From Candidatus Micrarchaeota archaeon (lineage in GTDB: Archaea > Iainarchaeota > Iainarchaeia > Iainarchaeales > JAGVWC01), in contig JAZDJR010000016.1 of NCBI GenBank assembly GCA_043803815.1, positions 1 through 38,386 on the forward strand: 38,386 nt of DNA. The letters run 5' to 3'. The notes below the pieces were generated by a model, which worked only from the letters and a program-made list of their open reading frames with translations, was not told where the DNA came from and did not search any database. A program made the position numbers and the translations under genes. Of the stretch, positions 3,301-21,227 are shown piece after piece (position 1 is the first letter of the stretch; each line of letters starts with the position of its first letter).

Positions 3301-6300
3301 ACCCAATTCACCACTTCGGAGGGAAAAGCAAATTTTTTGATTCCGCAATTATCCGTCCAAAGCAGTTTAAAAATTCAGGTATCCAAAAACGGCTTTGAAA
3401 CAATCGAACTGGAACAACCGGTAGGTTTAATTGTCCAGTTTGTGCCCGACCATTTGCAAGCCGAACTGGACCTGGCCACCCAGCCCGGTTTTTCCCTTCC
3501 GTTTGTTTTGCAAAACCAAAGCAGCCTGAACCTTTTGGGCCAAGGCGCAGAATTATCCGGACCGATTGACGGGGTATTGGATTTGGATCAATTGTCCCAG
3601 ACATTAAGCCGGTTTAAGGGACTTACCTTAGCCGCCCAAAACTCTGTTAGCGCGGACTTTTTTTCGGTTCAATTGGACCCGAATATTTTTTTGTCCGAAG
3701 ACAGCGTTTTTGAGACCAGCGCACTCCTTTATTTCAAAACAATCAGTTCAGATCAAAACTTTGTTTTTTCCCTGCCCCTAACCCTGACTGTGCATGCAAC
3801 ACAGGGAATTAACGCGGCCGCTTCCACTTGCCTGACCGTTACCCCCGCGGTTTGGAACGGGGTCTTGCAGCAAAACCAAAGCGCATTATCCGTTACCGTT
3901 TCCAACCAATGCGCAAGCGACAATGGAGAAGGAATCGATTTTAATTCCTTGGAAGGCCGCATCGAATGGCCGGGATTTGCTTTGGGCAATGTGGAAATGG
4001 AACTGCAAAGCCAAAACAGCGGCGATTCGTCTGCCGTAGTGCTGAAAAAAACCGAATGGCAAACATTGGCGAACAATTTTGCGTTCAATTCCAATGCCAC
4101 GGCAAACCTGACTTTTACTCCGACCGCGGATACCCTAGGCCAAACCGCGGAATTCAATGTCGTGGTTTCCGGAAAAACCAAAAACGGCCGGCGATTCGTA
4201 GCCGCACCGATTGTATCCAAATTATTGATTGCCAACCTTAAAGACTGCCTGATGTTTACCCCAAAGCCGCGGGAAGGAATCGCTATTCCGTTCGGCGGGC
4301 AAAATACTTTTTCCGTCGATTCCAGCCAATGCGGCAGCATGATTTTAGACATTGCCTTGTGCAAGGATGACCCCGGCTGCATGGGCGGCGCAAGCAAAGG
4401 AAAAATCAATGTAATGCCGTCCGAGTTTTCGCTTTCTCCCGAAACACCCAGCCAAACAGTTACAGTTTCCGGCGGCGACTTGCCCGGCGCCTACGGCATC
4501 ACGGTTTTTGTCGCCACCCAGCAGCAACCCTTTCAGCCCGTAGCCTTGATAGACGCAGTGGTAGACAACGACCCAGCCAAGCATTTTAGCCTGAACAAAT
4601 TCGAGTTTTTTGTCAAAAACAAAGGAACCGACTCCGCAACACTCACCAACAATTACGTGTCCAAACCGGTTACGGTTTCGGCTCCCGCCAAAGTCTGGGC
4701 TGAGATTGCTGCGCCCGACGAAAACGGTTTAAGCGGAATGCAAGCCGCCGGAGACGGCTTAGACCCCAATGCGATTGCCGCACTTACTCCCGCACTTGCA
4801 GAGTCCCGCAACGCGATTCAGCAGCTCGCAAGCCAAGTCGCGGACTCGTTAGATCAAGCCGGAAAATCCGCAGACACTGCAAGCCAGCAAACCAACGATG
4901 CCGCGCAAAAAACCAGCGATTCCAAAGACCAGGTATCGGGTGCTTTGGACCAGGCCGGCCAAGGGGTCGGCATGGCTAACATGATAGTAATGGACTGCGC
5001 ACCATTAACCGCCTGTGCTTCGGGCGCGGTAGTGCTAACAATGTGCCCAACGGCAAAAGCGGATGCCGCCAGGATTTGCGCTTCCGCGCAAAGCCTTTTT
5101 GGGGGAATCGCCAATGCCGTTAAAGCGCCTCTTAGTTCAGCAACGGAAGCCATTAAAGGGGCGACCAAAACAATGGGCACGCCGGCTTCAGGGGGTGGCG
5201 GTTTTGGCGGTAACTCGGGATTGAATGCGGATACCAAAGCAAGCCAAAAAAGGGCGATTTTTGCTTCAATTGGAACAGGCGGGTTCACTGCAGAGCTACG
5301 GCAAACAAGAACCCTTGCCTATTTCCAAGGTACGGGAGATTCGGTAAATTCGACAAGCCAGGCCCAGCAGCAACTTATTCAGGGAAGAGCCGATTCCGCA
5401 GTTGCCAGTTCTTCGCAAGCTTCCAATGGAGCGGCTTTGGCAAGCCAGCAGGCGGCCAATTCGTGCCAGAGCAGCAATCAGGCCGCCCAGCAGGACAAGC
5501 AGGCACAGGACCAAACAAAGGATTCCTCGCAAAATCAGGCAAGCGGAATCAGCGGGCTGGGACAGAACATTGCACAGGCAGCCATATTTGAAACCAATGT
5601 TGCCACGGCGCCTTGTTTGAACACATGGTGCCAGCCGCAAATTATGAAGATGCGCCAGACACTTTATACTTTTAAAGGGCTTCAAACCGCATTGCAGGGC
5701 GCTTCACAAACCGCAAAGGATTCGACGGATAACAAAGCCCAGCCCGGCCAGCAGCAGTCCGAACAGGCATCCAAAGCGGCCGCAGGTCTTGCCTGCGAAA
5801 CCTCCAAGCGCCTGCGCGAATTCGCGGATGCAACTCCCGCCATTTCCAAGGATTCGGGGGATGCCAATGACGAAATCATGCAGAACATCACCAATGCCTC
5901 CAACGCGCAGGGCCTGACCGACGGCCTGACCAACGGAATTTACCGCGACGAAATCGTCAGCAACGTATTTTCCGGATATTTAATCAACCTGGTCAATGAC
6001 GGAAAAGAAATCACGGCAGACAATCCGAAAATAAAAGGAAAATTCAACACCGAACAAGCCAAGGTTTCCAATCATTACAAGGAACAAAAAGTCGGAGTCG
6101 TGTTTGAAAATACGGGACTCAAAAACGACCGGCCGGTATACAGCACGGTGACCATCAAAGCCGACCAGCATGATTACGCAGAACCCCAAAGCGTTCCGCT
6201 TGGGGAAACCGACTGGGGCGCTTTTCGCCTCGAAAAAATCGGTACCACGACTCCATACGAACAGGAATTCCATTTGAAATTCAATGCAAGCGAAAACGCG

Positions 6301-8034
6301 GAAAGCGATTTTGGAGTCAATCCGTCGGAGAACCGCTGCGTACAGGGAAGCCTGATTGGTCAGACTACGGCTGAAGCATTGCCAAAAATAAAATTATCAT
6401 GGAAATGGAGCGACATTTCCGCCGACTTTTGCGATGCCGCAAACCCGAATTACAATTACTGCGATGCCAGCCAGCTGGCCATTGTCGTATCCAAGCGATT
6501 GAACAGCCTGCACGAATTTTTAAGCCAAAACCGCGAACTTTCCTGCCCGGAAAATCCCTATGAACCCAAATTGCAAAAGCAGGCCGACGAGCTTAATCCA
6601 GTGCTCAGCCAAAACGGAATTGCAACCGTCGGCGTCACAGACCAAACCGTCAAATGCTGGATACTTAAAACCACGGACACATTGGACGGCAGGCCGGCAT
6701 TGTCCTATTACGTGGAAGCCAATGCAAACAAGGTCCGCTTTACAACCGATGTTCCCGATGTAACCGCTTTGGAATCGCTCTTGAACTTTGACGCTTACCT
6801 GATACAAGACGGCTTTTCAACCGACTTTGTAAAAGACTTTTCCGATTATTACACCCAGCTGAATTTTTCGGACACGCCAAGCTTTTTCTTCGACGGTTCC
6901 AACGGAGCAAACCAGTTCAAGTTTTTCAGCGGCCAAAAAATTTCATTTCGCCAAAAATTCACGACAGCTAAAACAATGCCGACTAGCGGATTGTACAAAA
7001 TCAATTTAATCGCGGATTTTACCAAGCAGGACCGCTGGCAATTTTTTGATACTGCCAACAAGCCCAGCGCTGATATTTCGATTGACCTGCTTGCGTTCAA
7101 GCAAACCGCCGACAACTCGCCATTTTATTACCTGCCGTTTGACGGACTCGTCGGATTAAACGGAAACCGGTTAAACCGCCAGGGATATGGAACGGCTTTC
7201 ACAGTATCCGAAAATCAGGTGTTTTTCATTTCCCGAAAAACAGGCATAGCCACGGTTCCCGACAGCGGTTCCGTACCGAATCAAACCGTCAAAATCAACC
7301 GCTCCAGTTCGCTTGCGGCGCTCAACTCGCAGCCTTCGCGGCGCGGAATTATTCTGGACGTGCAATCCAAAAACGAAAGCCAAAAACAGCTCGATTTCTC
7401 GCCATCCATTGCAACACCCGTTCTCCTCAAAATTTCACAGGCGGCAACGTCAAAACCGTTTTCGGTTTTTTACGACATTCGAAACGCACAAGTCGGGGAA
7501 ACAACAGGGGACACCTTGGCATTTTGGACCGGAGCAGGAGCCTGCAGGGATTTTTCCGGCAGTATGGTTACGGAAGTATTTTCGGAAAAACCCGACCGCA
7601 AAGCCACCAAAAACGACCATTTTGACGCATGGAAAAACGCATACGCCATAGACTGGGAAAAAGCAGCGATTGGCGGAGACGAATACTTAAAAACCGTTTT
7701 TTATACTCCCGTCAATTCCGCTTACGCATTAAATTCGCAATCCCAAAACGCGGTCATCGGAACCCCCGATCAGGAATTTCAGCCATCGGTTGATTTGCAG
7801 GGAATCCAAAACATGCCGTTTAACCGCAAAGGCCAGACCGAAACCGACCGCATAACCGCACTTGACGACTTATTCAGCCTCGTTGAAAACGGGCAGGTAT
7901 GCGTCACCAACACGGGGCAGCGCACCCGATTCTGGTGGAACCAAAAAACGCTTTACCAGCAAACCGGAAACACCAATAAAAATATTCAAAACATCGAAGA
8001 CGGCCTGCAGTCCCTGACCAGCTGCATCGGATAA
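367..8034 (+). CDS. Giant (2555 aa) N-terminally membrane-anchored extracellular multidomain protein. It has tandem carboxypeptidase-regulatory-like/Ig-like beta-sandwich domains and a central Ala/Gln/Ser-rich helical insert.
   Basis: GTG start and a 7.7-kb ORF. TM helix SLLIFLVLILVIAGGLIWL at about aa 44-62. Repeated 'V.D..G.P(L/V)..A.V.(L/V)......T...G.A.F' type motifs. Paired Cys between domains. Confidence 0.85.
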   Translation: MGIKNGLAGVWEKLEDPYYRFLEWLDDHGISVFNITDPIDAHIPSLLIFLVLILVIAGGLIWLSNPAAPALVSNRIVFVDSSDNPLFGVSVEINSGSFSKKTVTAASGEMRFELQSGSKVQIKASRAGLNPVEQLLTVPKEGLNQKIELASILQTETFSIQFAGTDNRVITGKKLRFVLSCSNQGAVLDKTDFEIDSDQKTEVNRPENCGALIVSLKSPSEYRLGSYPVSSGQPLILLQPAVKIEDAQTGSILVSLFSEDSSLISQSEPVAVLSYNNRVLQELDVVNGSVRFSNLPPGPYSVLVYDSKQAFSQTEPSAVLVQPNSETIQRITVSSQVGFSVKAQVTDGTTNQAISRATVRLVEKESGLVVGQMRTANDGTALFNLEHKPNQELNLAVLATGFFSTTVSVNLLETVQSVVLKPVGPNQNGLVLIRIQNEQGEVVENAKVYLLDEAGNPRQDIAPQISDALGKAAFSGVPQGTFIAWAKKGFDEGQSAAFNASEIQSVEETVVLKPGNATLQINATDEQQKPLAGAKVTVFNEQNKEIAEFGLDDSGKRTANLSAGQTVRLQIEYPGFLAFRSQFISLISNANQTVNAVLVSASSNPGFKIRFTGFKTQNGKTIERIIPASLTYAFFELTVPQEIQYSKTGVFIRLEQGSDPNDWTIQNVQTPGGIIFMGNAFSPPDGETKDLALSNLVSANGQWTKISFSDLASGTYSIAVGVKTRADIESKSSLKLHFNAWAAEKDKTEWVTLPEDLAAANNSKPLLYADSFEQPAIVGSVLDECILSICLQDFRAKETANDQWLLYPFELRNNREYEFLFSVSNSGENSEHIALSAANQILGAGAVEIQIGSYNVETTDGALLSAVVNDYATAMPIEFDLAKLAKADIRFILKAQASQPSQIALNLALQSGGKIEKTAEFLSAGNAQFQVSVSPSIIPVLTETPLEITVTEKDSHTPVSDASVLLQIISPDNSDTSQTQFTTSEGKANFLIPQLSVQSSLKIQVSKNGFETIELEQPVGLIVQFVPDHLQAELDLATQPGFSLPFVLQNQSSLNLLGQGAELSGPIDGVLDLDQLSQTLSRFKGLTLAAQNSVSADFFSVQLDPNIFLSEDSVFETSALLYFKTISSDQNFVFSLPLTLTVHATQGINAAASTCLTVTPAVWNGVLQQNQSALSVTVSNQCASDNGEGIDFNSLEGRIEWPGFALGNVEMELQSQNSGDSSAVVLKKTEWQTLANNFAFNSNATANLTFTPTADTLGQTAEFNVVVSGKTKNGRRFVAAPIVSKLLIANLKDCLMFTPKPREGIAIPFGGQNTFSVDSSQCGSMILDIALCKDDPGCMGGASKGKINVMPSEFSLSPETPSQTVTVSGGDLPGAYGITVFVATQQQPFQPVALIDAVVDNDPAKHFSLNKFEFFVKNKGTDSATLTNNYVSKPVTVSAPAKVWAEIAAPDENGLSGMQAAGDGLDPNAIAALTPALAESRNAIQQLASQVADSLDQAGKSADTASQQTNDAAQKTSDSKDQVSGALDQAGQGVGMANMIVMDCAPLTACASGAVVLTMCPTAKADAARICASAQSLFGGIANAVKAPLSSATEAIKGATKTMGTPASGGGGFGGNSGLNADTKASQKRAIFASIGTGGFTAELRQTRTLAYFQGTGDSVNSTSQAQQQLIQGRADSAVASSSQASNGAALASQQAANSCQSSNQAAQQDKQAQDQTKDSSQNQASGISGLGQNIAQAAIFETNVATAPCLNTWCQPQIMKMRQTLYTFKGLQTALQGASQTAKDSTDNKAQPGQQQSEQASKAAAGLACETSKRLREFADATPAISKDSGDANDEIMQNITNASNAQGLTDGLTNGIYRDEIVSNVFSGYLINLVNDGKEITADNPKIKGKFNTEQAKVSNHYKEQKVGVVFENTGLKNDRPVYSTVTIKADQHDYAEPQSVPLGETDWGAFRLEKIGTTTPYEQEFHLKFNASENAESDFGVNPSENRCVQGSLIGQTTAEALPKIKLSWKWSDISADFCDAANPNYNYCDASQLAIVVSKRLNSLHEFLSQNRELSCPENPYEPKLQKQADELNPVLSQNGIATVGVTDQTVKCWILKTTDTLDGRPALSYYVEANANKVRFTTDVPDVTALESLLNFDAYLIQDGFSTDFVKDFSDYYTQLNFSDTPSFFFDGSNGANQFKFFSGQKISFRQKFTTAKTMPTSGLYKINLIADFTKQDRWQFFDTANKPSADISIDLLAFKQTADNSPFYYLPFDGLVGLNGNRLNRQGYGTAFTVSENQVFFISRKTGIATVPDSGSVPNQTVKINRSSSLAALNSQPSRRGIILDVQSKNESQKQLDFSPSIATPVLLKISQAATSKPFSVFYDIRNAQVGETTGDTLAFWTGAGACRDFSGSMVTEVFSEKPDRKATKNDHFDAWKNAYAIDWEKAAIGGDEYLKTVFYTPVNSAYALNSQSQNAVIGTPDQEFQPSVDLQGIQNMPFNRKGQTETDRITALDDLFSLVENGQVCVTNTGQRTRFWWNQKTLYQQTGNTNKNIQNIEDGLQSLTSCIG

Positions 8035-8546: not shown

Positions 8547-8586
8547 AAAGAATTTTAAGGATTATTTACTTTTAGTATTGAGTTTT

Positions 8587-9828
8587 ATGGCAGCATCCAA
8601 ATCGAGCGAATTTGACGCCATCATCGTCGGCGCGGGACCCGGCGGCGCATCCATGGCCATGTACCTGCAAAAGCAGGGCCAAAACGTTTTGCTCCTTGAA
8701 AAATCCGAGTTTCCACGCGACAAAATATGCGGAGACGCCATCGGCGTTCGCGCCATGGTCGTTTTGCGCGAACTTGGAATCGCAGACCAGATGGAAGCGC
8801 AAAAACACGAAAAAACCTACGGCGTGATTTTTTCCTCTCCCAAAGGCCAGACAGTCCAAATCCAGTTTCCCAACACCGACCCCTCAACCGGAAAAGGCGG
8901 ATACGTCTGCCGGCGCATGGTATTCGACAATTTTTTGTTTCAAAACGCCAAAAAACGGGTTTTAAACGTCCGCGAAAACATCCAGGTCACGGATTTGATT
9001 TGGGAAAACGATTTCGTCGTCGGAGTCAAGGCAATCGATTTGAAAACAAAACAACACTTAGAATTCAAAAGCAAAATCGTAATCGGAGCCGACGGAGCGT
9101 CCGGAATCGTCGCAGCCAAACTCGGGCTAAACGCGTCGCTTCCCGAACACGAATGCATCGCGCTTCGCCAGTACTACGAGAACATCGGCGGCTGCACGAA
9201 CAACATTGAAATCCATTTTGTGGATTCGCTTTTGCCCGGCTATTTCTGGATTTTTCCCCTGGAAAACAACACCGCCAATGTCGGCGTCGGCATGCTCGCC
9301 AGCGACATCAAAAAAAAGAAAGTAAAACTGCAGGAATCAATGGATGCGGTCATCAAAAACGACCCGCTCTTTAAGGAACGCTTTGCCAAGGCCAAGGCGA
9401 TTTCGGACATCAAGGGCTGGCGCCTGCCCTTGGGCTCTTTTCACCGCAAATGCCACGGCAACGGATGGATACTGCTTGGCGACGCGGCGTCCCTAATCGA
9501 CCCGTTTTCGGGGGAAGGAATCGGCAACTCCATGACCAGCAGCCGAATCGCGGACAAGATTTTGGCAAAAGCGTTTGAAAAAAACGATTTTTCGGAAAAC
9601 TTTTTGCGGCAATACGACACGGAACTTTGGAAAGAACTCGGCCCCGAACTCAAAACCAGCAGTTATCTGCAGAAGTTGGGAAAAATAAAGCCCCTTTTGA
9701 ATTTTGTCATCAACAAAGCAAGCAAAAATAAACGGGTGCAAAAAGAAATCTCGGGAATGCTGGCCAACGAAAACGCCAAAAAAGAAATGGCCAACCCGCT
9801 GTTTTATTTGAAACTGCTTTTTGCTTGA
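8587..9828 (+). CDS. Geranylgeranyl reductase family FAD-dependent oxidoreductase (paralog 1)
   Basis: Motifs GAGPGG, FPRDKICGD, GADG, PGYFWIFP and LLGDAASLIDPFSGEGI. ATG at 8587 preferred over TTG at 8578. Confidence 0.9.
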   Translation: MAASKSSEFDAIIVGAGPGGASMAMYLQKQGQNVLLLEKSEFPRDKICGDAIGVRAMVVLRELGIADQMEAQKHEKTYGVIFSSPKGQTVQIQFPNTDPSTGKGGYVCRRMVFDNFLFQNAKKRVLNVRENIQVTDLIWENDFVVGVKAIDLKTKQHLEFKSKIVIGADGASGIVAAKLGLNASLPEHECIALRQYYENIGGCTNNIEIHFVDSLLPGYFWIFPLENNTANVGVGMLASDIKKKKVKLQESMDAVIKNDPLFKERFAKAKAISDIKGWRLPLGSFHRKCHGNGWILLGDAASLIDPFSGEGIGNSMTSSRIADKILAKAFEKNDFSENFLRQYDTELWKELGPELKTSSYLQKLGKIKPLLNFVINKASKNKRVQKEISGMLANENAKKEMANPLFYLKLLFA

Positions 9829-10096: not shown

Positions 10097-10398
10097 ATCC
10101 AGCCCCTACAAAAAACAGTTCGTTTCAATAAAATGGTATGCTTGGCAAAGCAACCGTGCCTGAAATGCCATTACGAGATGGCCAAAGTTATCCTTCGGGC
10201 GGTTAATTTGCGCAAGAAACGCTCCCCGAAGCCGGCGAAAAATAAATCGGAACGATTTTTCAAGTTCAACAAAGGGTGTTCCGCGAAAAGCCAAACAGCG
10301 CATCCAGTACGGAGCTGGCTGGGACTCCTAAAAGCCGTGCATGAATACGCCCGATTCTCAAAAAAAAAAGCCGAAAAAACCGCTTGGTACAATCCCCG

Positions 10399-10456: not shown

Positions 10457-13400
10457 ATGAAAAAATACTTAATTGTCCTGTCCGCATTGTTTTTTTTGGC
10501 GCTTTTTTCGACTGTTTCCGCGGCAATTGTTGACGTTAATGTCTGGAAATTCGGAGCCCAAACCAACGGCTTTAACGGAAGCGACGCCAACTTCCTGTTT
10601 ACCGACGCCAACTACCCGTTTTTCAGTTCCTTTCGCGACGGCAATATCCGCGTCGATTTCAACGTTATCCAACAAGCCGCTGCGGGCGCGCACGCGATTC
10701 GGATGGACCTAAACTTGGTTCGGCGCATAGGCGGAGGCGCTGGCGCTACCGGAATCGATGACAACACCGTAGTTTTCGTAGACCAAAACATAGGCGCATT
10801 CAAACTCCCCGGCAAAAGCATCAACATATGCGACAGCAACAATTTTACAAGCACGGTAAACTGCCGAGTCGACCTTAATATTGGAAAAAACTTTTTGCCC
10901 GCCGACGGAAATTATCTTGTACGCATCAGAATTTATGATGTGAATTCCGCCAGCCAGAAAGGAGGCGCGGACGTCAATAAGGATACCAGTACGAGCGCGA
11001 CGTCAATTGGAATCGACAATACTCCGCCCAGCATAACCTGGGACGGCAACCACGCGACATGGCAGGCAACCGATGCCAATGTCCACCTCAGCTGCTCCGA
11101 TTACAATGTAACAGGGCAAGACGCCAACAACTCGGGATGCGCAACCGCCCAATTTCGACTCGACACCAACCGCGACTCTTCGATTGCGATGCCTGCTTTT
11201 TCAGACTATAACGCCAGCAAAGACCAGAATATTTTTATTGGAATCAACGACGGAAACTACGCGCTGGACTGGAACGTATCCGACCGCGCAGGAAACCGAG
11301 CCGTCAGCAATTCACTCATAAGCGGAACCACGGATTATAACCGAACCTACATTCAAATCGACAATACGGTACCTGACGTTAATGTTTGGAAATTCGGAGC
11401 CCAAATCAACGGCTTAACCGGAAATGACGCCAATTTCCTGTTTACTGATACCAATTACCCGTTTTTTAGTTTCTTTCGCGATGGCAACATCCGCATCGAT
11501 TTCAATGTTTTTCAAGCTGATTCCAATGGACAGCGCGGATTGCTCCTTGATGTTAATTTGGTTCGGCGCATAGGCGGAGGCGCTGGCGCTACCGGAATCG
11601 ATGACAACACCGTAGTTTTCGTAGACCAAAACATTGGCGCATTCAAACTCCCCGGCAAAAGCATCAACATATGCGACAGCAATTCTTTCTCGTCCCGGGT
11701 AAACTGCCGAATCGACCTAAACATCCACAAAAACTTTTTGCCCGCCGACGGAAACTATTGGATTCGCATGCGAATTTATGAGGGAGACAAGGCCAACCTA
11801 AAGGGAAATGCAAACACGGACAGGAATACAAGCAACCTATCCATCGGAGTCGACAACACTCCACCCAGCATAACCTGGGACGGCAACCACGCAATCTGGC
11901 AGGCAACCAACGCTAATGCCCACCTCAGCTGCTCCGATTACAACGCAACCGGACAAGACGCCAACAACTCGGGATGCGCAACCGCCCAATTCCGACGCGA
12001 CACTGACCCAACATATTTAATCGCAATGCCAACGGCATTTTCAGACTATAACTCCGGCACGGACAGTAATATTTCTATTAGAACCGACGGAAACTACGCA
12101 CTGGACTGGAACGTATCCGACCGCGCCGGAAACCGGGCCGTCAGCAATTCACTCATAAGCGGAACCACGGATTATAACCGAACGTATGTTCAACTCGCCA
12201 AAACCGACGTGAATATCTGGCAGTACAACAGCAATAACCAAGACACTAATTACCTGGAAAACGCGAATTACCCTGTCTTTTCCTATGTGCGCGACAAAAA
12301 CATCCAAATTGATTTTAATATCAGCAACACGGTTGGCACGGGAATCGACACCAACCGCTTATTACTGGACCTTAATTATTCCAGCCTTCCAATCTGGGAA
12401 ACCGGAACCTCCATTGTAAAAGACTTAAACCTTCACTCCCTGACCAATGTTGGTTCATACCGGTGTGCAGACATCAACTTCCAAGATCAGACTTCCTGTT
12501 CCGTTGACTGGAATATCAGCGGAGTAACCGACGGAAACTATTACATTCAAATTAACGTCCACGGCGACGGCAACATCGGACCCGACACGTCAAGCCGAAC
12601 CATCGGAATCGACAACACGGGTCCGACGGTAAATATTACTACGACCAATGGTTCAACCAGCACCGAAACAAGTTCAATCAACATTTTGTTCACCGGAAGC
12701 GATGCGGGCGCGGGCATTAAAAACTATTGGATTTCCACGGACAATTCAACGTTTACCAGTAACGGAACCAGCACCACAGCCAGTTTTGCCATTCCATTAA
12801 ATGACCGCCCCTTTTCACGCATCTATTATATCAAAGGCACGGACAAAGCTGACAACAATAGCAGCACGCAAAGCGTAAGCATTACCTATGTTACATCCGG
12901 CGGCGGAGGTAGCGGAGGAGGCAGCGGCGGCGGTTCATCTGGTGGTGGAGGTTCCGGCGACAACACAACAGGACCTGAAACCCAAACCGTTTCCGGCGGC
13001 ACCGCGGGCGAACCGGTCAGTATTATGTTCCAAAACGCCGGCAATTCGGTTTTCGAAATTATTTTAGCCACAGGCCAAGGAATTTCCAGCGGAGCCAACA
13101 TTACAGTGGACAGCAACACTTCGGCCCCGACAGGAGCACCGGCATTTGAAGGATTAGAATCGTTTAAGTTTATTCAAATTATCCCTCATAATATTTCAAC
13201 TGCCGCGCAAGAAAACGCCAAAATCCGCTTTTCGGTTTCCAAAGCATGGCTCGCTCAAAACAATATTCTGCTCGGAAGCGTCAAACTCAATCGTTATCAC
13301 AACGGAGTCTGGGAAAGCCTAGCCACGACGCATATTTCAAGCGACGCCGACAATGAAAATTTTGAAGCAACTACCCCCGGCTTTTCGGTCTTTGCGATTA

Positions 13401-13597
13401 CCGGAAAAAAACTCGAAACCACCGCGTCAACACCGCCGGAAACTCCCCCAGCCACGCCGCCCGCAACGCCACCGGCAACGCCGCCTGCGGCACCACCCGT
13501 GGAACCAGTCTCTGCCAATAATTTCCTTTTAATCGTCGGTTTGGTTGTCATTGTCCTGATTGGCGGGTTCTTTTTTGTACGCAAAAAGAAAAAATAA
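10457..13597 (+). CDS. Secreted, C-terminally anchored surface protein. Architecture: signal peptide, A-B-A-B-A' repeated beta domains, Ig-like domain, Gly/Ser linker, PGF-pre-PGF domain, Pro/Thr linker, TM helix and basic tail.
   Basis: Signal peptide MKKYLIVLSALFFLALFSTVSA from ATG 10457; the ORF-track start at 10133 runs through the promoter. PGF-pre-PGF signature VKLNRYHNGVWESLAT...ATTPGFSVFAITG. C-terminus FLLIVGLVVIVLIGGFFFVRKKKK. Confidence 0.85.
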   Translation: MKKYLIVLSALFFLALFSTVSAAIVDVNVWKFGAQTNGFNGSDANFLFTDANYPFFSSFRDGNIRVDFNVIQQAAAGAHAIRMDLNLVRRIGGGAGATGIDDNTVVFVDQNIGAFKLPGKSINICDSNNFTSTVNCRVDLNIGKNFLPADGNYLVRIRIYDVNSASQKGGADVNKDTSTSATSIGIDNTPPSITWDGNHATWQATDANVHLSCSDYNVTGQDANNSGCATAQFRLDTNRDSSIAMPAFSDYNASKDQNIFIGINDGNYALDWNVSDRAGNRAVSNSLISGTTDYNRTYIQIDNTVPDVNVWKFGAQINGLTGNDANFLFTDTNYPFFSFFRDGNIRIDFNVFQADSNGQRGLLLDVNLVRRIGGGAGATGIDDNTVVFVDQNIGAFKLPGKSINICDSNSFSSRVNCRIDLNIHKNFLPADGNYWIRMRIYEGDKANLKGNANTDRNTSNLSIGVDNTPPSITWDGNHAIWQATNANAHLSCSDYNATGQDANNSGCATAQFRRDTDPTYLIAMPTAFSDYNSGTDSNISIRTDGNYALDWNVSDRAGNRAVSNSLISGTTDYNRTYVQLAKTDVNIWQYNSNNQDTNYLENANYPVFSYVRDKNIQIDFNISNTVGTGIDTNRLLLDLNYSSLPIWETGTSIVKDLNLHSLTNVGSYRCADINFQDQTSCSVDWNISGVTDGNYYIQINVHGDGNIGPDTSSRTIGIDNTGPTVNITTTNGSTSTETSSINILFTGSDAGAGIKNYWISTDNSTFTSNGTSTTASFAIPLNDRPFSRIYYIKGTDKADNNSSTQSVSITYVTSGGGGSGGGSGGGSSGGGGSGDNTTGPETQTVSGGTAGEPVSIMFQNAGNSVFEIILATGQGISSGANITVDSNTSAPTGAPAFEGLESFKFIQIIPHNISTAAQENAKIRFSVSKAWLAQNNILLGSVKLNRYHNGVWESLATTHISSDADNENFEATTPGFSVFAITGKKLETTASTPPETPPATPPATPPATPPAAPPVEPVSANNFLLIVGLVVIVLIGGFFFVRKKKK
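10531..12186 (+). repeat. Intragenic tandem duplication with a ~843-nt period. A third, diverged partial copy lies at about 12205-12630.
   Basis: 10531-11349 matches 11374-12186, including a ~125-nt block (10715-10840 vs 11557-11682) with only one mismatch. Confidence 0.9.
13431..13500 (+). repeat. 12-nt degenerate tandem repeat encoding a (PPxT)n linker
   Basis: Encodes TPPETPPATPPATPPATPPAAPP. Confidence 0.7.
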
Positions 13598-13689: not shown

Positions 13690-14862
13690 ATGACCGATGC
13701 ATTCGACGTGTTAATCATAGGTGCGGGGCCTGCGGGCGGAAACGCCGGACGCAACGCCGCCGAACTCGGATTAAAAACAGCGATTTTGGAAGAGCATAAA
13801 ACCGTCGGGGAACCCGTGCACTGCGGGGAATGCCTTTCGCAATTGGCTTTGGAACGCCAGAATTTGAAGATTCCGGACAAAGCGATTAGTATCCCGGTGA
13901 AAGGAGTGCGCGTAATTTTTCCCAATGAAAAATCCTGCACAGTAACCGAACCCGGATTTGTTTTGGAAAAGCATTTGTTTGAGCAGTGGCTTGCAAACGA
14001 AGCGCAAAAAAAAGGCGCGGAACTATTGCTGGATCACAAGGCCTTGGATTTGAAACGCGAAAACGGATTATGGAAAATCCAAACCAACCACGGGGAACTT
14101 TCGGCCAAAATCGTTATTGATGCCTCGGGAATACAAAGCATCGCTTCCCGAAAACTCGGATTGAATCGCCGGTTTGAAAGCGTAATCGGAATCCAGCACG
14201 AAATAAGGGAAATTCCAAGCGACGACTATTTGGATTTTTTTTTATGGCCGGAATTCGCTCCGCAGGGTTACTGCTGGAGCATTCCCAAAAGCCACAACCG
14301 CGCGAACGTGGGGCTTGTGACCGGCCAAAAAAACAGGGCCAAGGAATTCTGCGACGCATTTGTAAAGCGCAGGAAATGGGAGAACAAAACAATCGTGAAA
14401 ACATTCGGCGGATTAATCCCTTCTTCGGGGCCCTTGCCCAAAACGTATTTTGACGGGTTGATGCTTATCGGGGATGCCGCGGGATTCACCTCTCCCCTGT
14501 TTGAGGGCGGAACGCATTTGGGGCTCGCGAGCGGAAACTTCGCTGCGCAGGTCGCGGCAAAAGCGATTGGAAAAAATAATTGGGGCAGCGGCGCCCTTTG
14601 GGAATATGAACAATTGTGGAAAAAAGAATTTCCCGCATACCATTCGCTCATGAAAGGAAAAAAAGCGCTGTATGATTTTTCAGGCGAAGAACTAAACCAG
14701 ATGGCCCTCCTTTTGCCAAAAGAAATTGGAAACATGGGGGTGGCGGATTACGCAAGCGTCGGGCTCAAACTATTCGGAAAATACCCCAGACTGGTTTCCA
14801 AGGGAATCATGGACGCATTCCAAGCGTTTAAATATTCGCGCGCAAAATATTACGGCTGGTGA
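13690..14862 (+). CDS. Digeranylgeranylglycerophospholipid reductase-like GGR-family flavoprotein (paralog 2)
   Basis: Motifs DVLIIGAGPAG, GEPVHCGECLS, APQGYCWSIPK, ANVGL and LIGDAAGFTSPLFEGG. Confidence 0.88.
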   Translation: MTDAFDVLIIGAGPAGGNAGRNAAELGLKTAILEEHKTVGEPVHCGECLSQLALERQNLKIPDKAISIPVKGVRVIFPNEKSCTVTEPGFVLEKHLFEQWLANEAQKKGAELLLDHKALDLKRENGLWKIQTNHGELSAKIVIDASGIQSIASRKLGLNRRFESVIGIQHEIREIPSDDYLDFFLWPEFAPQGYCWSIPKSHNRANVGLVTGQKNRAKEFCDAFVKRRKWENKTIVKTFGGLIPSSGPLPKTYFDGLMLIGDAAGFTSPLFEGGTHLGLASGNFAAQVAAKAIGKNNWGSGALWEYEQLWKKEFPAYHSLMKGKKALYDFSGEELNQMALLLPKEIGNMGVADYASVGLKLFGKYPRLVSKGIMDAFQAFKYSRAKYYGW

Positions 14863-16187: not shown

Positions 16188-16355
16188 TAGAATGAACGCT
16201 TATGGGGTATAAAAAGCTGGCGAAGCCCAGATAGAAACGCTAAAAAACGCTCTTTTTTGGCTCTACCTCACCAACCAACAACTGAAACAAAGCCAACCGC
16301 CAAGGAGAAATCTTTTTATAGCCAAAGCATGTACTACTCACTTGGTGGAATTCCT

Positions 16356-19300
16356 TTGAACAGCACCCTAATACCAGCAATAATAATAGTAATAGCGGCC
16401 TTGGCTTTCACCAGTTTTTTTTCTTATTATCAACTCAACGGAATCGGACTAGGAACCGCCAACAATTCAATTCAAAAAAACCTCTCCGAAACAGGAGTTG
16501 CTAGTAATTCAATCCAAAAAAGCCTCTCCGAAACATGCACAGTTCAAACCGGTTCTTTGGAAAGCCCAGTCGAAATCGAATTGTCCACGGTATTCAATAC
16601 GCCTATTGGAAACCAGAACAAGTGCCAACAAGTCGCACAGGAACAAAAACAACAAATTACTTTCTTGCTATGCGCCAACAATAAAAACACCAGTTGGTAT
16701 GATTTGTATTGGAGCAACGAAAAAACCGAAACCAGCCAAAACATAAACTGCGCTCAATTCATTCCACTCGTGCAACCGCCTTCTGCGCAAGAAACCGCGG
16801 CTGATAAAACAAATACTTCTGCTATTGGAACACAAACTACTGATGAGCAACCGACTGAACTTCCAGATAATTTCCAAGGAAAAAAGGTTACAAAAATCTC
16901 CAACGACCAAATTTTTGCTATTGGAGCACAAACCCTGAATGGGCAACTGATTAAACTTCCGGACACTTTCCAAGGAAAAACTGTCGTAAAAACTTCCGAC
17001 GGCCAAAAAGACCATATTCAAGGAAGATTTATTGTCAAGTTTGGGGAAAATGCAGACCGAGAACAGCAAATCCTACACGTGCTTAACGCCAGAGTTGAAA
17101 AAGAAATCCCGCAACTTGGCGTCAAAATAATTCAAATACCATCGGCGCCGAACGAACTTGCCGTTTTGAATGCTTTGCAACAAACCGAAGGAGTCGAATT
17201 CGCGGAATTTGATGAACTCGTGAGGCCCGATTTAATTCCAAATGACCCTTTGTATAGTGGTCAGTGGGGGCTGCAATCAACTGGTGGCATTAATGCCCCT
17301 CCGGCGTGGGATATTTCGACCGGCAGTCCAAATGTCATCATTGCGATTCTGGATTCGGGTGCTGACGCTACGCATGAAGACCTTGCGGCAAAAGTGATTT
17401 CCGGCTGGAACTTTTATAACAACAACTCGAACACCACTGATTTATCGGGTCATGGCACGGCTGTTGCCGGCGTCGCCGCCGCTTCGTCAAACAATAGCAT
17501 CGGCGTTGCCTCAGTCGCCTGGGGCTCCAAGATTATGCCAATTAAAGTTACTGACGAAAACGGCTTTGGGGTTACTTCCCTGTTCGTGCAGGGACTCGTT
17601 TGGGCAGCGGACCATAACGCCAGGGTGGCCAACATTTCATTCACTGTCAGCGGTAACCAATCAATCAGAATTAGTGCTGAATACTTCCAAGCCAAGGGCG
17701 GGATTGTGGTTACTTCCGCCGGCAACACTTATGGGCCTTCCGGTTATTCTGAGGAACCTTACTTTCTCACGGTCGGCGCGACATATTCCGACGGGACAAA
17801 AGCCCCCTATTCAACCTACGGCGCCAATGTAGACCTCGCTGCGCCAGGTACTGCCACAACTACGAGTCGTGGAGGGGGTTATGGGGGCGCATCTGGCACC
17901 TCGATGTCCGCGCCGTACGTTGCGGGCGTAGCGGCCCTTTTGCTGTCGAAAAATCCGGGACTTACCCCAAAACAGGTTGAAGACATACTTAAGCACTTTG
18001 CAACCGACCTTGGCCAGGCTGGCTATGATGAGAGCTTTGGATGGGGGCGCGTGAATGCTGGCCAAGCCCTGGCGAATTGGAACGGCACGGGCGTAGCGCC
18101 ACCCGCTCCACTCTTGGGTTTTCCTGCAAACGGAAGCACACAGACTAGCCTAACCCATTATGACTTTAACTGGTTCAATGTCACTGACCCAACCGGCGTA
18201 ACATACCGGCTTCAAATAGACAATAACGGCAGTTCCTTTCTTTCTCCAGAAGTGGATGTCAACACAACCAACACGAGTTCCTATATGAGCTTTGCCATTG
18301 CGCTGCCAGCGGGAACGTATTCCTGGCGCGTGCGCGCAACGGATGGCGCAAACAATGCGGGCGTTTGGAGCAGTGTACGAACAGTAACCAATTCACCTAC
18401 CGATACCCAGGCACCCACTATCCCCATCCTATTAAATCCCTCCAATGGAGGCAGCACCCAGGATTATACTCCTGCTTTTGACTGGAACGATTCCAACGAC
18501 CAGTACCCCTACCAAGTCCAATACCAACTCCAAGTGGACAACAGCGGTTCAAGCTTTCCCTCCCCGGAAATCAATATTACAACCTGGAATATGTACCGAT
18601 CGTACTACACGCCCACCGAACCGCTTTCGGTTGGAACCTATTCTTGGAGAGTAAGGGCTTTTGACGCTTCCGGAAATTACAGCGCCTGGAGTTCCGTTTT
18701 CACTTTTACCATTACGCCCGATACAACGCCGCCGCCCGCGCCAACTCCGCAATACCCAACCAATGGAAGCGTAACACAATCAGTTTACAATACCTATCAG
18801 TGGACCCAAGTGACGGACAACGCAAATGTGGTAACGTATCAGTTCCAACTCGACAACAGCACATCCGCTTTTCCATCGCCGGAAATTGACCTTTCGGGCC
18901 ATTCTGATAATTTCGCAGACTATCCAGACACTCTTTATTATTATCACAACCCCGGAACTTATTATTGGCGGGCACGGGCAACGGACCAAGCGGGAAATGT
19001 AGGCGCCTGGAGCTCGGTCTGGAATGTTACGGTCGCGCCAGATACAACGCCGCCGCCTGCACCAGCATTGCTTTCGCCTCCGAATGGAAATATCACGACC
19101 AACACAACCCCGTGGTTTGACTGGTCCAATGTAAACGATTTTAACAATGTCAATAATTTTATCAGTTATGAAATTCAAATAGACAATAGCGGCCCAAGCT
19201 TTCCCTCGCCCGAAACCAGCAAGCGGGTTTTATCTTCGGATTATACACCCTACCCGCCTTTTGTTTCGGGGAGTTATTGGTGGAGGGTTCGAGCATTCGA

Positions 19301-21227
19301 TTGCGTGATTCCACCCAATGCAAGTCCATGGTCCACGGTCTACTCGTTCACGATTTCCAGCACCGCTGTATTTTATCGATTAACAGTCACAAAATCCGGA
19401 ACCGGCACTGGACTTGTTTATTCAGGAACCCCTAGTGGAATTGACATTTGGTGCGGTTCAACGTGCTCTGCGTTATTCGAGCCCGGAACTCTGGTTAACT
19501 TATACGAAACGCCAGACACGAACTCGGCATTTTCAAGTTGGAGCGGGGGATGCACAGGAACAGGGGAATACTGTACGGCCACAATGGACGCAAACAAAAC
19601 AGTCAACGCCACATTCAACAGCACTGGCCCAACTCCCACCTATTCTTTGAGCGTAACAAAATCCGGAACAGGAACTGGAACCGTTGCTTCCACTCCGGGT
19701 GGAATTGATTGCGGTTCAACATGTTCCGCACCATTCAGTTCAGGAACTTTGGTTACCTTAACCGCAACGCCAAACGCGGGTTCGGCATTTTCAAGTTGGA
19801 GCGGAGCATGCACAGGAACCGGAAACCCATGCACGGTCACAATGGATGTAAACAAAACAACCAACGCAACATTCACCCTAGACACCAGTCCGCCAACAGT
19901 TTCAATCACTTCTCCAACAAACGGAGCAACAGTAACCGGAACAATTAATATTAATGCAAACGCAAGCGACAACATCGGAGTAACAAGAGTAGACTTTTAT
20001 CGAGACACCAACCTAATCGGAACCGACACCAATTCCCCCTATTCAATTTCATGGGACACTACTTCAGTGAGCAATGGCCAATATAGTTTAACCGCCAAGG
20101 CCTTCGACGCAGCCGACAACAATGCAACCAGCACACCCGTCACGGTAACAGTAAACAACATCATCACCTATTCTTTGAGTGTATCCAAATCCGGAACCGG
20201 AGCAGGAACCATAACCTCCTCTCCTTCCGGAATAAACTGCGGAACAACCTGCACAACAAACTTTCCAATTAACACCACCGTAACACTAACCGCCACACCA
20301 GAAACCGGTTCGATACTCAGAAACTGGACTGGAGCATGCGAAGAACTATTATGCGGCAACGGCACAATTGATCCAGGAGAACAATGCGATGACGGAGGAA
20401 TATGCACCTGCCAAGAAGGCGGAAGTACAGAAAACTGTCCACCAACCTTTGCACCAGTTCATTGCACCACCAACGGCAATCAATGTTCCCTCGGAACCGG
20501 ATACTACTGTAAAACATATTCCGGAGACGGCTGCGATGCTTATTGTCAGATTGAACCAAATAAAATTGAACCAAGCGAACCAACAACAACCTGCACAATT
20601 AAAATGACACAAAACAAAAACAGCAACGCCACATTCAACGACATCCAAAACCCAACCACCAGCATTACCTCTCCAACAAACGAGGCAACCGTCTCCGGAA
20701 CCATCAACATCAACGCAAACGCAAGCGACAACATCGGAATAACAAAAGTAGAATTCTACTACGGAACAACACTAATCGGAACCGACACCAACGCCCCCTA
20801 CTCAATACCATGGAACACCACAACAATAACCAATGGCTCATACTCACTAACCAGCGTTGCCTACGACCTCGCAGACAACACCGGAACCTCAACACCAATC
20901 ACAATAACAGTCAACAACGATACAACCGGACCAGCACTAACAATCACAACCCCCCAAAACGGCATCACTCTACCCCCCAGCGGAACCATCGACATCAGCG
21001 CCACAGCAACCGACCCCAGCGGAATCAACAAAATCGAACTATATGCCAACACCACTCTGATAAAAACCTGCCTAGGAAGCCCCACCACCACAAACCTAAC
21101 CTGCACAAAAAACAACCAAAACGTCAACATCTTCCCAAGCGGAACAAACACCATCACAGCCAAAAGCTGGGACAACAGCGCAAACCAAAACCAAACAACC
21201 ACCAGCATCACGGTTTACAAACCATAA
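16356..21227 (+). CDS. Membrane-anchored S8 (subtilisin/thermitase-like) serine protease. It has a propeptide, four FN3/Ig-like repeats, three InlB-B-repeat-like domains, bacterial Ig-like domains and a Cys-rich insert.
   Basis: Catalytic triad motifs IAILDSG, GHGTAVAG and GTSMSAPYVAG. N-terminal TM LIPAIIIVIAALAFTSFF. TTG 16356 follows GGTGG; ATG 16329 and the ORF start 16257 are alternatives. Confidence 0.9.
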   Translation: MNSTLIPAIIIVIAALAFTSFFSYYQLNGIGLGTANNSIQKNLSETGVASNSIQKSLSETCTVQTGSLESPVEIELSTVFNTPIGNQNKCQQVAQEQKQQITFLLCANNKNTSWYDLYWSNEKTETSQNINCAQFIPLVQPPSAQETAADKTNTSAIGTQTTDEQPTELPDNFQGKKVTKISNDQIFAIGAQTLNGQLIKLPDTFQGKTVVKTSDGQKDHIQGRFIVKFGENADREQQILHVLNARVEKEIPQLGVKIIQIPSAPNELAVLNALQQTEGVEFAEFDELVRPDLIPNDPLYSGQWGLQSTGGINAPPAWDISTGSPNVIIAILDSGADATHEDLAAKVISGWNFYNNNSNTTDLSGHGTAVAGVAAASSNNSIGVASVAWGSKIMPIKVTDENGFGVTSLFVQGLVWAADHNARVANISFTVSGNQSIRISAEYFQAKGGIVVTSAGNTYGPSGYSEEPYFLTVGATYSDGTKAPYSTYGANVDLAAPGTATTTSRGGGYGGASGTSMSAPYVAGVAALLLSKNPGLTPKQVEDILKHFATDLGQAGYDESFGWGRVNAGQALANWNGTGVAPPAPLLGFPANGSTQTSLTHYDFNWFNVTDPTGVTYRLQIDNNGSSFLSPEVDVNTTNTSSYMSFAIALPAGTYSWRVRATDGANNAGVWSSVRTVTNSPTDTQAPTIPILLNPSNGGSTQDYTPAFDWNDSNDQYPYQVQYQLQVDNSGSSFPSPEINITTWNMYRSYYTPTEPLSVGTYSWRVRAFDASGNYSAWSSVFTFTITPDTTPPPAPTPQYPTNGSVTQSVYNTYQWTQVTDNANVVTYQFQLDNSTSAFPSPEIDLSGHSDNFADYPDTLYYYHNPGTYYWRARATDQAGNVGAWSSVWNVTVAPDTTPPPAPALLSPPNGNITTNTTPWFDWSNVNDFNNVNNFISYEIQIDNSGPSFPSPETSKRVLSSDYTPYPPFVSGSYWWRVRAFDCVIPPNASPWSTVYSFTISSTAVFYRLTVTKSGTGTGLVYSGTPSGIDIWCGSTCSALFEPGTLVNLYETPDTNSAFSSWSGGCTGTGEYCTATMDANKTVNATFNSTGPTPTYSLSVTKSGTGTGTVASTPGGIDCGSTCSAPFSSGTLVTLTATPNAGSAFSSWSGACTGTGNPCTVTMDVNKTTNATFTLDTSPPTVSITSPTNGATVTGTININANASDNIGVTRVDFYRDTNLIGTDTNSPYSISWDTTSVSNGQYSLTAKAFDAADNNATSTPVTVTVNNIITYSLSVSKSGTGAGTITSSPSGINCGTTCTTNFPINTTVTLTATPETGSILRNWTGACEELLCGNGTIDPGEQCDDGGICTCQEGGSTENCPPTFAPVHCTTNGNQCSLGTGYYCKTYSGDGCDAYCQIEPNKIEPSEPTTTCTIKMTQNKNSNATFNDIQNPTTSITSPTNEATVSGTININANASDNIGITKVEFYYGTTLIGTDTNAPYSIPWNTTTITNGSYSLTSVAYDLADNTGTSTPITITVNNDTTGPALTITTPQNGITLPPSGTIDISATATDPSGINKIELYANTTLIKTCLGSPTTTNLTCTKNNQNVNIFPSGTNTITAKSWDNSANQNQTTTSITVYKP
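18095..19355 (+). repeat. Four ~105-aa FN3/Ig-like repeats in the S8 protease
   Basis: Recurring P.AP.L..P.NG....W..V.D....Y..Q.DNS..SFPSPE.....G.Y.WRVRA.D..N...WS.V. Confidence 0.8.

Follow-up and report, generated by a model that had tools for sequence, protein, structure and literature searches.

Why would a surface protein of a tiny, uncultured archaeon from groundwater place an asparagine exactly two residues behind most of its aspartates? The question is raised by a gene for a membrane-anchored surface protein of 1046 amino acids (aa) in contig JAZDJR010000016.1 of a Candidatus Micrarchaeota archaeon (assembly GCA_043803815.1, placed among the Iainarchaeota in the GTDB), the whole 38,386-nucleotide stretch of which was analysed and is referred to here as the window. 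A first-pass annotation, made from the sequence of the window, had noted that the repeats of this protein are crowded with Asp-x-Asn (D-x-N, where x is any residue), and had proposed either that the lineage modifies the Asn of D-x-N independently of a Ser or Thr at position +2, or that D-x-N turns form a dense Ca2+-binding or self-assembly lattice. We find that D-x-N is a selected linear motif in a subset of the exported proteins of Iainarchaeota and at least some Micrarchaeota, and that it is carried by beta-rich proteins resembling adhesins, by proteins resembling pilins, and by domains joined to these. The parts of the gene to which the first counts refer are the following, in window coordinates.

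10457..13597, + strand: gene for the 1046-aa membrane-anchored surface protein, counted from the likely start MKKYLIVL (the listed open reading frame opens upstream at 10133)
10523..11365, + strand: repeat 1, aa 23-303, 281 aa, two beta-sandwich domains as judged from a structure model
11366..12202, + strand: repeat 2, aa 304-582, 77% identical to repeat 1
12203..12628, + strand: repeat 3, aa 583-724, a diverged copy of the first domain only

In repeat 1, 23 of the 29 Asp stand in D-x-N and Glu is absent; the repeat holds seven N-x-S/T sequons, and five of its 23 D-x-N complete one. Repeat 2 has 27 Asp, 21 of them in the motif, and repeat 3 has 14, of which 11 are so placed; the motif fades in the C-terminal 322 residues (aa 725-1046), which include the PGF-pre-PGF domain and contain 2 D-x-N against 0.7 expected. 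The first-pass annotation is borne out by these figures in each of its counts for repeat 1, in the persistence of the motif through the second and the diverged third copy, and in its fading towards the membrane. The whole of aa 23-724 contains 70 Asp and 91 Asn, which between them form 55 D-x-N, so that 55 of the 91 Asn have Asp at -2; only 14 of the 55 sites have Ser or Thr at +2, and Glu is scarce, with 3 in 702 residues.

A protein so rich in Asp and Asn, and containing a duplication of 77% identity, could owe such a pattern to its composition, to recent internal duplication or to a signal in the DNA. Plain shuffling of aa 23-724 gave a mean of 9.04 D-x-N (standard deviation 2.65) and a maximum of 20 among 20,000 shuffles, and a shuffle that preserved the hydrophobic/polar pattern gave 9.9 +/- 2.8 with a maximum of 22; under neither of these two null models did any of 20,000 shuffles reach even half of the observed count. 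Other spacings and orders in the same segment are not enriched (DN 6, D..N 4, N.D 4, D.D 1, N.N 4). In the DNA of the gene, frame 0 has 57 instances of the codon pattern GAY-NNN-AAY, each of the other frames a single one, and the frames of the opposite strand 5, 1 and 0, and this confinement to the reading frame places the D-x-N signal at the level of the protein. The motif is also kept in distant homologues and shared by unrelated families, both described below, and its retention in the homologues means that duplication of repeats 1 and 2 is not the explanation, as the first-pass annotation had maintained. Shuffles, spacing controls and the frame test thus rule out composition, duplication and DNA-level origins, so that an artefact of this kind can for practical purposes be dismissed; the excess of D-x-N is real, directional and selected at the protein level.

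We then asked how the motif is distributed between secreted and cytoplasmic proteins, by computing observed/expected ratios (O/E) for D-x-N across the organism's own genome (1.08 Mb in 36 contigs), in which 954 open reading frames (ORFs) were called crudely as the longest non-overlapping frames of at least 100 aa. The ORFs were classed, roughly, from a hydrophobic N-terminus and the number of hydrophobic segments; misclassification weakens contrasts and does not produce them. Family masking denotes the removal of domains matched by a hidden Markov model (HMM) of the repeat family.

Exported-type ORFs (n=152): 434 D-x-N against 254.0 expected, O/E 1.71
Exported-type ORFs with the five top proteins removed (n=148): 306 against 228.5, O/E 1.34
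Exported-type ORFs, family-masked (n=152): 381 against 242.9, O/E 1.57
Multi-pass membrane ORFs (n=107): 66 against 58.3, O/E 1.13
Cytoplasmic ORFs (n=695): 420 against 409.8, O/E 1.02

Control patterns in the exported set gave ratios of 0.98 for N-x-D, 0.95 for D..N, 0.92 for DN and 0.75 for E-x-N, with N-x-D at 1.00 after family masking, and D-x-N was enriched at Poisson p<0.01 in 16 of the 152 exported-type ORFs against 3 of the 695 cytoplasmic ones. The excess does not belong to one fold only, since the repeat-family HMM matched few proteins (the surface protein itself, a paralogue on contig C24 and, weakly, one more) and the enriched proteins have mutually unrelated architectures, namely YadA-like, LVIVD/VWA, pilin-like and deacetylase. 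Thus, a YadA-head protein carries 29 D-x-N against 6.1 expected, an LVIVD and VWA protein with a pilin-like N-terminus 25 against 6.1, and small pilin-like proteins beside the latter 13 against 2.1, 5 against 1.0 and 3 against 0.3. Every segment of the enriched proteins carries the excess, including the alpha/beta VWA domain itself (5 against 0.9), and the N-terminal deacetylase part of the C24 paralogue is enriched as well. The S8 protease encoded in the window (16257-21227), in which the motif had also been spotted from the sequence, has 15 D-x-N against 6.5 expected.

The C24 paralogue (C24:23951-28300, - strand, locus L002), with 61 D-x-N against 11.2 expected, combines these same repeats with a polysaccharide deacetylase domain at its N-terminus and a C-terminal part rich in Cys. 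The LVIVD/VWA protein, a 1143-aa combination of an LVIVD beta-propeller and VWA, is encoded within a pilin-like gene cluster (C36:16935-22667, - strand, locus L004), the products of which have short charged N-termini followed by a hydrophobic helix and are all D-x-N-rich; from its gene content, the cluster resembles an adhesion operon of a type IV pilus-like kind, in which a VWA protein would be the tip adhesin.

How far does the pattern extend beyond this genome? A phmmer search with repeat 1 against 1.84 billion representatives returned 86 proteins, 83 of which have a whole-protein D-x-N O/E of 2.96-10.2, the three exceptions standing at 0.31, 0.73 and 1.09; summed over the homologues, there are 3149 D-x-N against 667.9 expected, and 540 N-x-D. 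A species-genome collection yielded 33 related loci, of which 17 are titled Iainarchaeum, ainarchaeum or Diapherotrites, 14 only 'archaeon', 1 Micrarchaeota and 1 bacterium. In these loci D-x-N stands at 4.78x expectation in the family domains, at 2.69x in the non-family parts of exported proteins, and at 1.57x in a 'cytoplasmic' class that is inflated by truncated surface ORFs.

The LVIVD/VWA protein also allowed the lineage to be separated from the fold, using its 120 best homologues. An archaeal-type group of 25, comprising 24 proteins with a VWA domain and one LVIVD protein without VWA named Diapherotrites, was set from Pfam architecture and source names before any D-x-N was counted. This group has 469 D-x-N against 127.3 expected (3.68), whereas the 95 other LVIVD proteins, two of them named Patescibacteria, a group common in groundwater, have 297 against 335.0 (0.89). 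Exceptions run both ways, with one archaeal-type protein at 1.42 and four of the other group at 2.1-3.3. All 30 LVIVD/VWA orthologues collected from genomes of the phylum have O/E values of 2.3-5.9. The D-x-N excess is a feature of the lineage, laid over a fold that bacteria share.

Across 3254 sites of the repeat family, the flanking and middle residues alternate hydrophobic, which puts the Asp and the Asn on the same exposed face. Pro (0.11x) and Asp (0.14x) are avoided between the two; the surroundings of the motif are poor in Glu, Lys and Asp, with Asp depleted at every flank position from -4 to +2 and to 0.23x at +1 after Asn; and aromatic residues are enriched beside it (Trp 3.5x at -4, and Tyr, Trp and His at +1 after Asn). 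The avoidance recurs in the unrelated enriched proteins, where the middle residue is Pro at 2 of 469 sites (21.8 expected) and at 1 of 121 (5.2 expected), and Asp at 0 of 469. Among the N-x-S/T sequons of the family, 44.6% have Asp at -2.

When the motifs were mapped on an AlphaFold model of repeat 1, which is all-beta with two sandwich domains (mean predicted local distance difference test score, pLDDT, 75.4), the 23 sites fell in strands (7), at strand edges (8) and in loops (8) alike. In a model of the LVIVD/VWA protein (mean pLDDT 79.7), strands take 4 of the 25 sites and strand edges 7, helices take 3 and a helix edge 1, and the other 10 lie in loops. As modelled, then, the motif has no fixed local structure and is independent of fold and secondary structure. 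Within the LVIVD/VWA orthologues, the motif Asp and Asn are 54% and 44% identical, against 37-40% for the remaining residues, and 222 of the 433 D-x-N in 21 orthologues fall where the query has none, many of them private to one or two sequences. Because sites turn over in this way while every orthologue keeps the excess, selection acts on the density of the motif rather than on its place. An origin of the Asn codons from a diversity-generating retroelement was set aside without a test; the sites are kept as Asn across homologues.

What could require such a motif? It is restricted to exported proteins and to one lineage, it is directional, it depends on neither fold nor secondary structure, it shuts Pro and Asp out of its middle, and its positions turn over while its density is kept; together these features lead us to favour a linear motif that is read by an enzyme. 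Tentatively, and some way short of conviction, we take D-x-N to be a linear motif at which the Asn accepts a modification, the modification most likely being N-glycosylation directed by the Asp at -2. In the mechanism that we envisage, a lineage-specific Asn-modifying enzyme would recognise the motif outside the membrane, on a chain not yet folded, and the divergent AglB of the phylum would be the most probable candidate for it; the Asp at -2 would serve as an acceptor determinant, as it does in PglB, and would supplement or replace the Ser/Thr at +2, and the product would be a very dense glycan coat. To our knowledge, AglB is the one enzyme that acts on Asn outside archaeal cells. The modification of any D-x-N Asn and the role of AglB in it are both things that we infer, and that AglB itself is responsible we regard as possible rather than probable. 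The widest form of the proposal, in which the whole phylum would have shifted its N-glycosylation acceptor rule from N-x-S/T towards D-x-N while the WWD of AglB decayed, with adhesins and pilins carrying up to one site per 13 residues, is likewise a doubtful though serious possibility.

The pattern invites comparison with the PglB sequon of Campylobacter-type N-glycosylation, which bars Pro at X. Both have an acidic residue two positions before the Asn, both exclude Pro from the middle, and both are linear motifs of exported proteins. They differ in that PglB uses D/E-X-N whereas the motif described here takes Asp only and no Glu (E-x-N 0.75x), in that three quarters of the D-x-N sites here have no Ser/Thr at +2, and in that the enzyme here is an STT3-like archaeal AglB. 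A published account gives the bacterial PglB sequon as D-X-N-X-T/S, with R331 binding the acid at -2, and describes the WWD motif as hydrogen-bonding the Ser/Thr at +2 and as highly conserved (PMC7226087).

The organism's own genome contains one STT3-family gene (724 aa; C35:9612-11786, locus L001:1435-3609), which is followed by a gene for an initiating transferase of glycosyltransferase family 4 (GT4), as in canonical archaeal and eukaryotic AglB/STT3 systems. Its product matches PF02516 at 56.9 bits, above the cut-off, has its best alignment, at both ends, with eukaryotic STT3A, and shares with the canonical enzymes the first catalytic Asp motif, an SVSE-like motif in external loop 5 (EL5) and a DK-type Lys; unlike theirs, its WWDYG motif reads WWDEGH. 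Among 42 close homologues, the Asp of WWD has given way to another residue in 6 and the fourth place is occupied by Tyr in 4, while the sequence in three distant archaeal homologues is WWDYGYW. Of the 151 genomes of the phylum, 134 carry STT3, as do 52 of the 55 high-quality ones, and with so near-universal a gene a presence/absence test is uninformative.

We therefore read the motif itself, in one AglB copy per genome from 26 genomes (relatives in loci L192-L211; extra STT3 copies in three genomes were left out). Seventeen have WWD, only 3 of them as WWDYG, and the others have WWG (4), WWN (3), WWE (1) and WWS (1), so that 9 of the 26 have G, N, S or E in place of the Asp, a further departure from the canonical enzymes. 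In the AglB of one more genome, beyond these 26, no WWD-type motif was found. A conserved Lys stands 11 residues after the EL5 Glu, the R331 of PglB being at +12 in what is an insecure alignment, and a search with the AglB EL5 stretch against the PDB, made to place R331, returned no useful match.

Two multi-pass membrane proteins of 527 and 482 aa are encoded on the same contig as AglB (C35:22603-25968 and C35:33015-36359, loci L039 and L040). Their likeness to PMT_2, and to a putative glycosyltransferase family, LA_3751/LA_3752 (NF047440, E 3e-13 and 2e-12), is weak and sub-threshold; going by it, they could be further transferases of the glycosyltransferase C (GT-C) type.

If AglB reads the motif, its sequon-binding sequence and the D-x-N excess might be expected to vary together, and we set the one beside the other in 100-400 kb samples from seven other genomes of the phylum and in the organism's own genome.

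G006: AglB motif WWDYG, exported-type O/E 1.00
G004: AglB motif WWDYG, exported-type O/E 1.30
G001: AglB motif WWDQG, exported-type O/E 1.12
G002: AglB motif WWDNG, exported-type O/E 1.65
Own genome: AglB motif WWDEG, exported-type O/E 1.71
G014: AglB motif WWDEG, exported-type O/E 1.73
G010: AglB motif WWGEG, exported-type O/E 1.65
G017: AglB motif WWGLG, exported-type O/E 2.66

The two genomes with WWDYG rank first- and third-lowest (1.00 and 1.30), and those that have lost the Asp stand at 1.65 and 2.66; cytoplasmic O/E in the eight genomes ranges over 0.86-1.17. Unlike in canonical N-glycosylation, N-x-S/T in exported-type proteins is only 1.03-1.19x expectation in all eight. Across seven genomes, the frequency of Ser/Thr at +2 of D-x-N showed no consistent pattern by AglB type. 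The O/E of the LVIVD/VWA orthologue is uninformative for single genomes because all 30 are enriched.

A number of observations weigh against AglB-mediated modification at D-x-N. The AglB trend, though it runs in the direction that the sequon hypothesis predicts, is drawn from eight related genomes, with a one-sided p of about 0.07 by rank count, and two of the samples, G006 and G001, stand at 1.00 and 1.12, although that of G001 missed its enriched LVIVD/VWA orthologue (O/E 3.24). The first-pass annotation had named the WWD/DK pocket of AglB as a place to look, and what is found there cuts both ways: WWDYG is altered to WWDEGH, and yet, by alignment to STT3A, the organism's own AglB retains WWD and the DK-type Lys, so that the +2 pocket may be intact. 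The Lys 11 residues after the EL5 Glu is also present in a family without the D-x-N excess. Ser/Thr at +2 follows 26.2% of family D-x-N against 20.6% of other Asn, and the favoured modification, which is deduced from sequence, would have to dispense with it at three quarters of the sites. We know of no N-glycoprotein as dense as one site per ~13 residues. The excess is absent from some surface proteins: the 2555-aa neighbour in the window (367-8034), which serves as an internal contrast, has 7 D-x-N against 9.0 expected, and the PGF-pre-PGF part of the protein itself is without a strong excess. Over the whole family-masked exported set, which consists mostly of background sites, Pro in the middle position is not depleted (27 sites, 1.45x). 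Finally, in the Ig-like repeat family the motif residues are the best conserved after Cys, and the manner of their conservation, described next, would also fit a structural role.

In 19 homologues of the Ig-like family, the motif Asp and Asn are 76% and 73% identical, against 28-29% for hydrophobic and other residues, and the pairs tend to be lost together (244 both kept, 59 both lost, and 36, that is 24 + 12, with one residue lost). A structural motif, in which the exposed Asp(i) and Asn(i+2) bind Ca2+ or Mg2+ or form networks of side-chain hydrogen bonds, would account for this, and we give it an appreciable minority chance. On the model of Ca2+-dependent bacterial Ig-like (BIg) adhesins and S-layers, such pairs might rigidify secreted domains, aid their folding outside the cell or bridge a lattice. 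The hydrophobic alternation of the flanks, which sets Asp and Asn on an exposed face, and the scarcity of Glu and Lys in the repeats are what one would look for, and a fold search with the repeat-1 model, which returned generic tandem Ig matches only, had as its best match the Ca2+-binding BIg adhesin SiiE, at a weak TM-score of 0.38-0.41. Tandem Ig-like architecture on a membrane anchor and richness in Asp and Asn are shared with Ca2+-rigidified adhesins in general (SiiE BIg domains, cadherin DxNDN linkers, RTX). Known Ca2+ motifs, however, cluster acidic residues (DxDxDG, cadherin DxNDN, RTX), and here acids are not clustered: D-x-D is avoided, with 1 in 702 aa, and Asp is at 0.14x in the middle and 0.23x at +1 after Asn. 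The motif is spread over strands, helices and loops and over unrelated folds, rather than placed at domain junctions; cytoplasmic proteins (1.02) and bacterial proteins that share the LVIVD fold (0.89) are free of the excess; its sites turn over in the LVIVD/VWA family; and a hydrogen-bond or checkerboard model leaves the unequal use of N-x-D unexplained. A precedent for the Ca2+ variant is available in a study of BIg adhesins, which calls extracellular Ca2+ a 'chemical foldase' for these proteins (PMC12518558). Both proposals of the first-pass annotation have thus stood in part: modification independent of +2 Ser/Thr is favoured by the linear-motif statistics and the altered WWD and opposed by the Ig-family conservation and the WWD kept in the organism's own AglB, while the Ca2+-binding or self-assembly lattice has the pair conservation of the Ig-like family in its favour and the depletion of D-x-D and the occurrence in helices and loops against it.

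Two further explanations look less probable. Some other selected property of exported proteins, for instance a different modification of Asn or Asp by another enzyme, such as the GT-C-like proteins on C35, or resistance to proteases, is unlikely though by no means negligible; the weak NF047440 matches of the two C35 proteins, far below the cut-off, and the depletion of Lys and Glu around the motif agree with it, but nothing connects the C35 genes with the motif, and resistance to proteases would not, by any known logic, select an ordered D-x-N. Improbable, in our view, is a ligand-binding surface in which arrays of Asp and Asn beside aromatic residues would form multivalent carbohydrate- or mineral-binding sites for attachment to a host or matrix. 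The aromatic enrichment beside the motif and the adhesin-like character of the proteins, with their VWA, YadA-head and pilin-like parts, are in line with such a function, and the sole paper that a literature search on Asp-X-Asn brought up concerns GNA-type lectins, but 23 sites in 281 aa, over all secondary-structure types, are unlike discrete pockets, and the consensus of a lectin is wanting: the mannose site of GNA-type lectins is QxDxNxVxY, whereas the residues enriched around D-x-N include neither Gln at -2 nor Val at +4 nor Tyr at +6.

The remaining features of the surface protein, together with its protease neighbour, are as follows.

10457..10522, + strand: signal-like hydrophobic N-terminal segment, aa 1-22, seen in the sequence, with the same start in homologues
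12686..12886, + strand: Ig-like domain, aa 744-810, from a weak OmpL47-type match (E 0.0011, below cut-off)
12896..12958, + strand: Gly/Ser linker, aa 814-834, seen in the sequence
13001..13405, + strand: PGF-pre-PGF domain, aa 849-983 (TIGR04213, E 3.3e-22, 79.1 bits against a cut-off of 28)
13424..13510, + strand: Pro/Thr-rich stalk, aa 990-1018, seen in the sequence, with a 12/24-base tandem repeat
13514..13594, + strand: C-terminal transmembrane anchor followed by KKKK, aa 1020-1046, where an LPXTG-type anchor profile matches the hydrophobic tail only
16257..21227, + strand: S8 protease with Big_7 repeats, a neighbour of the surface-protein gene, with a milder D-x-N excess

The D-x-N-rich part matched no Pfam or NCBIfam family above the curated cut-off, and the repeats gave 0 matches when compared with the PDB by sequence. 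In its C-terminal domain, which matches TIGR04213 above cut-off, the protein resembles the PGF-pre-PGF surface proteins of euryarchaea, and it differs from them in that the domain is followed by a Pro/Thr stalk and a separate transmembrane anchor, not directly by a PGF-CTERM tail. The 12/24-base tandem repeat (window 13428-13485) encodes TPPA units of the stalk between the PGF-pre-PGF domain and the anchor, and the length of the stalk likely varies. On either side of the surface-protein gene lie genes for geranylgeranyl-reductase-like flavoproteins with GGR_cat and FAD-binding domains (window 8578-9828 and 13690-14862, + strand), which, from their domain content, could act on membrane lipids or on dolichol-type carriers. 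The 2555-aa neighbour (window 367-8034, + strand) is a protein of surface type; it has CarboxypepD_reg domains, a long middle of low complexity that is rich in Ala, Ser and Gln, and an abundance of Glu and Lys.

The N-x-S/T sequon, and the WWD motif by which it is read, are regarded as near-universal in all of life's three domains. In the full-text literature, searches for D-x-N or Asp-X-Asn with archaea, sequon and Diapherotrites/Iainarchaeota surface terms found no description of the D-x-N pattern, and searches on WWDYG together with DPANN found nothing on decay of WWD in DPANN archaea; glycoproteomic work on N-glycosylation in DPANN archaea was reportedly carried out by Nakagawa et al. in 2024 and may bear on the sequon question. 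In the lineage described here, a decayed WWD goes together with another motif that contains Asn and is under strong selection in the exported proteins, and because the enzyme sequences and their natural substrates are both in hand, an alternative acceptor rule for an STT3-type enzyme becomes directly testable. Should the shift of the sequon be true, these archaea would wear the densest N-glycan coat known; should the Asp/Asn pairs bind cations instead, they would define a motif for stabilising surfaces that is new, very simple and missed by the motif libraries now in use. Either way, the density of D-x-N offers a practical marker for the surface proteome of these uncultured, symbiont-like archaea.

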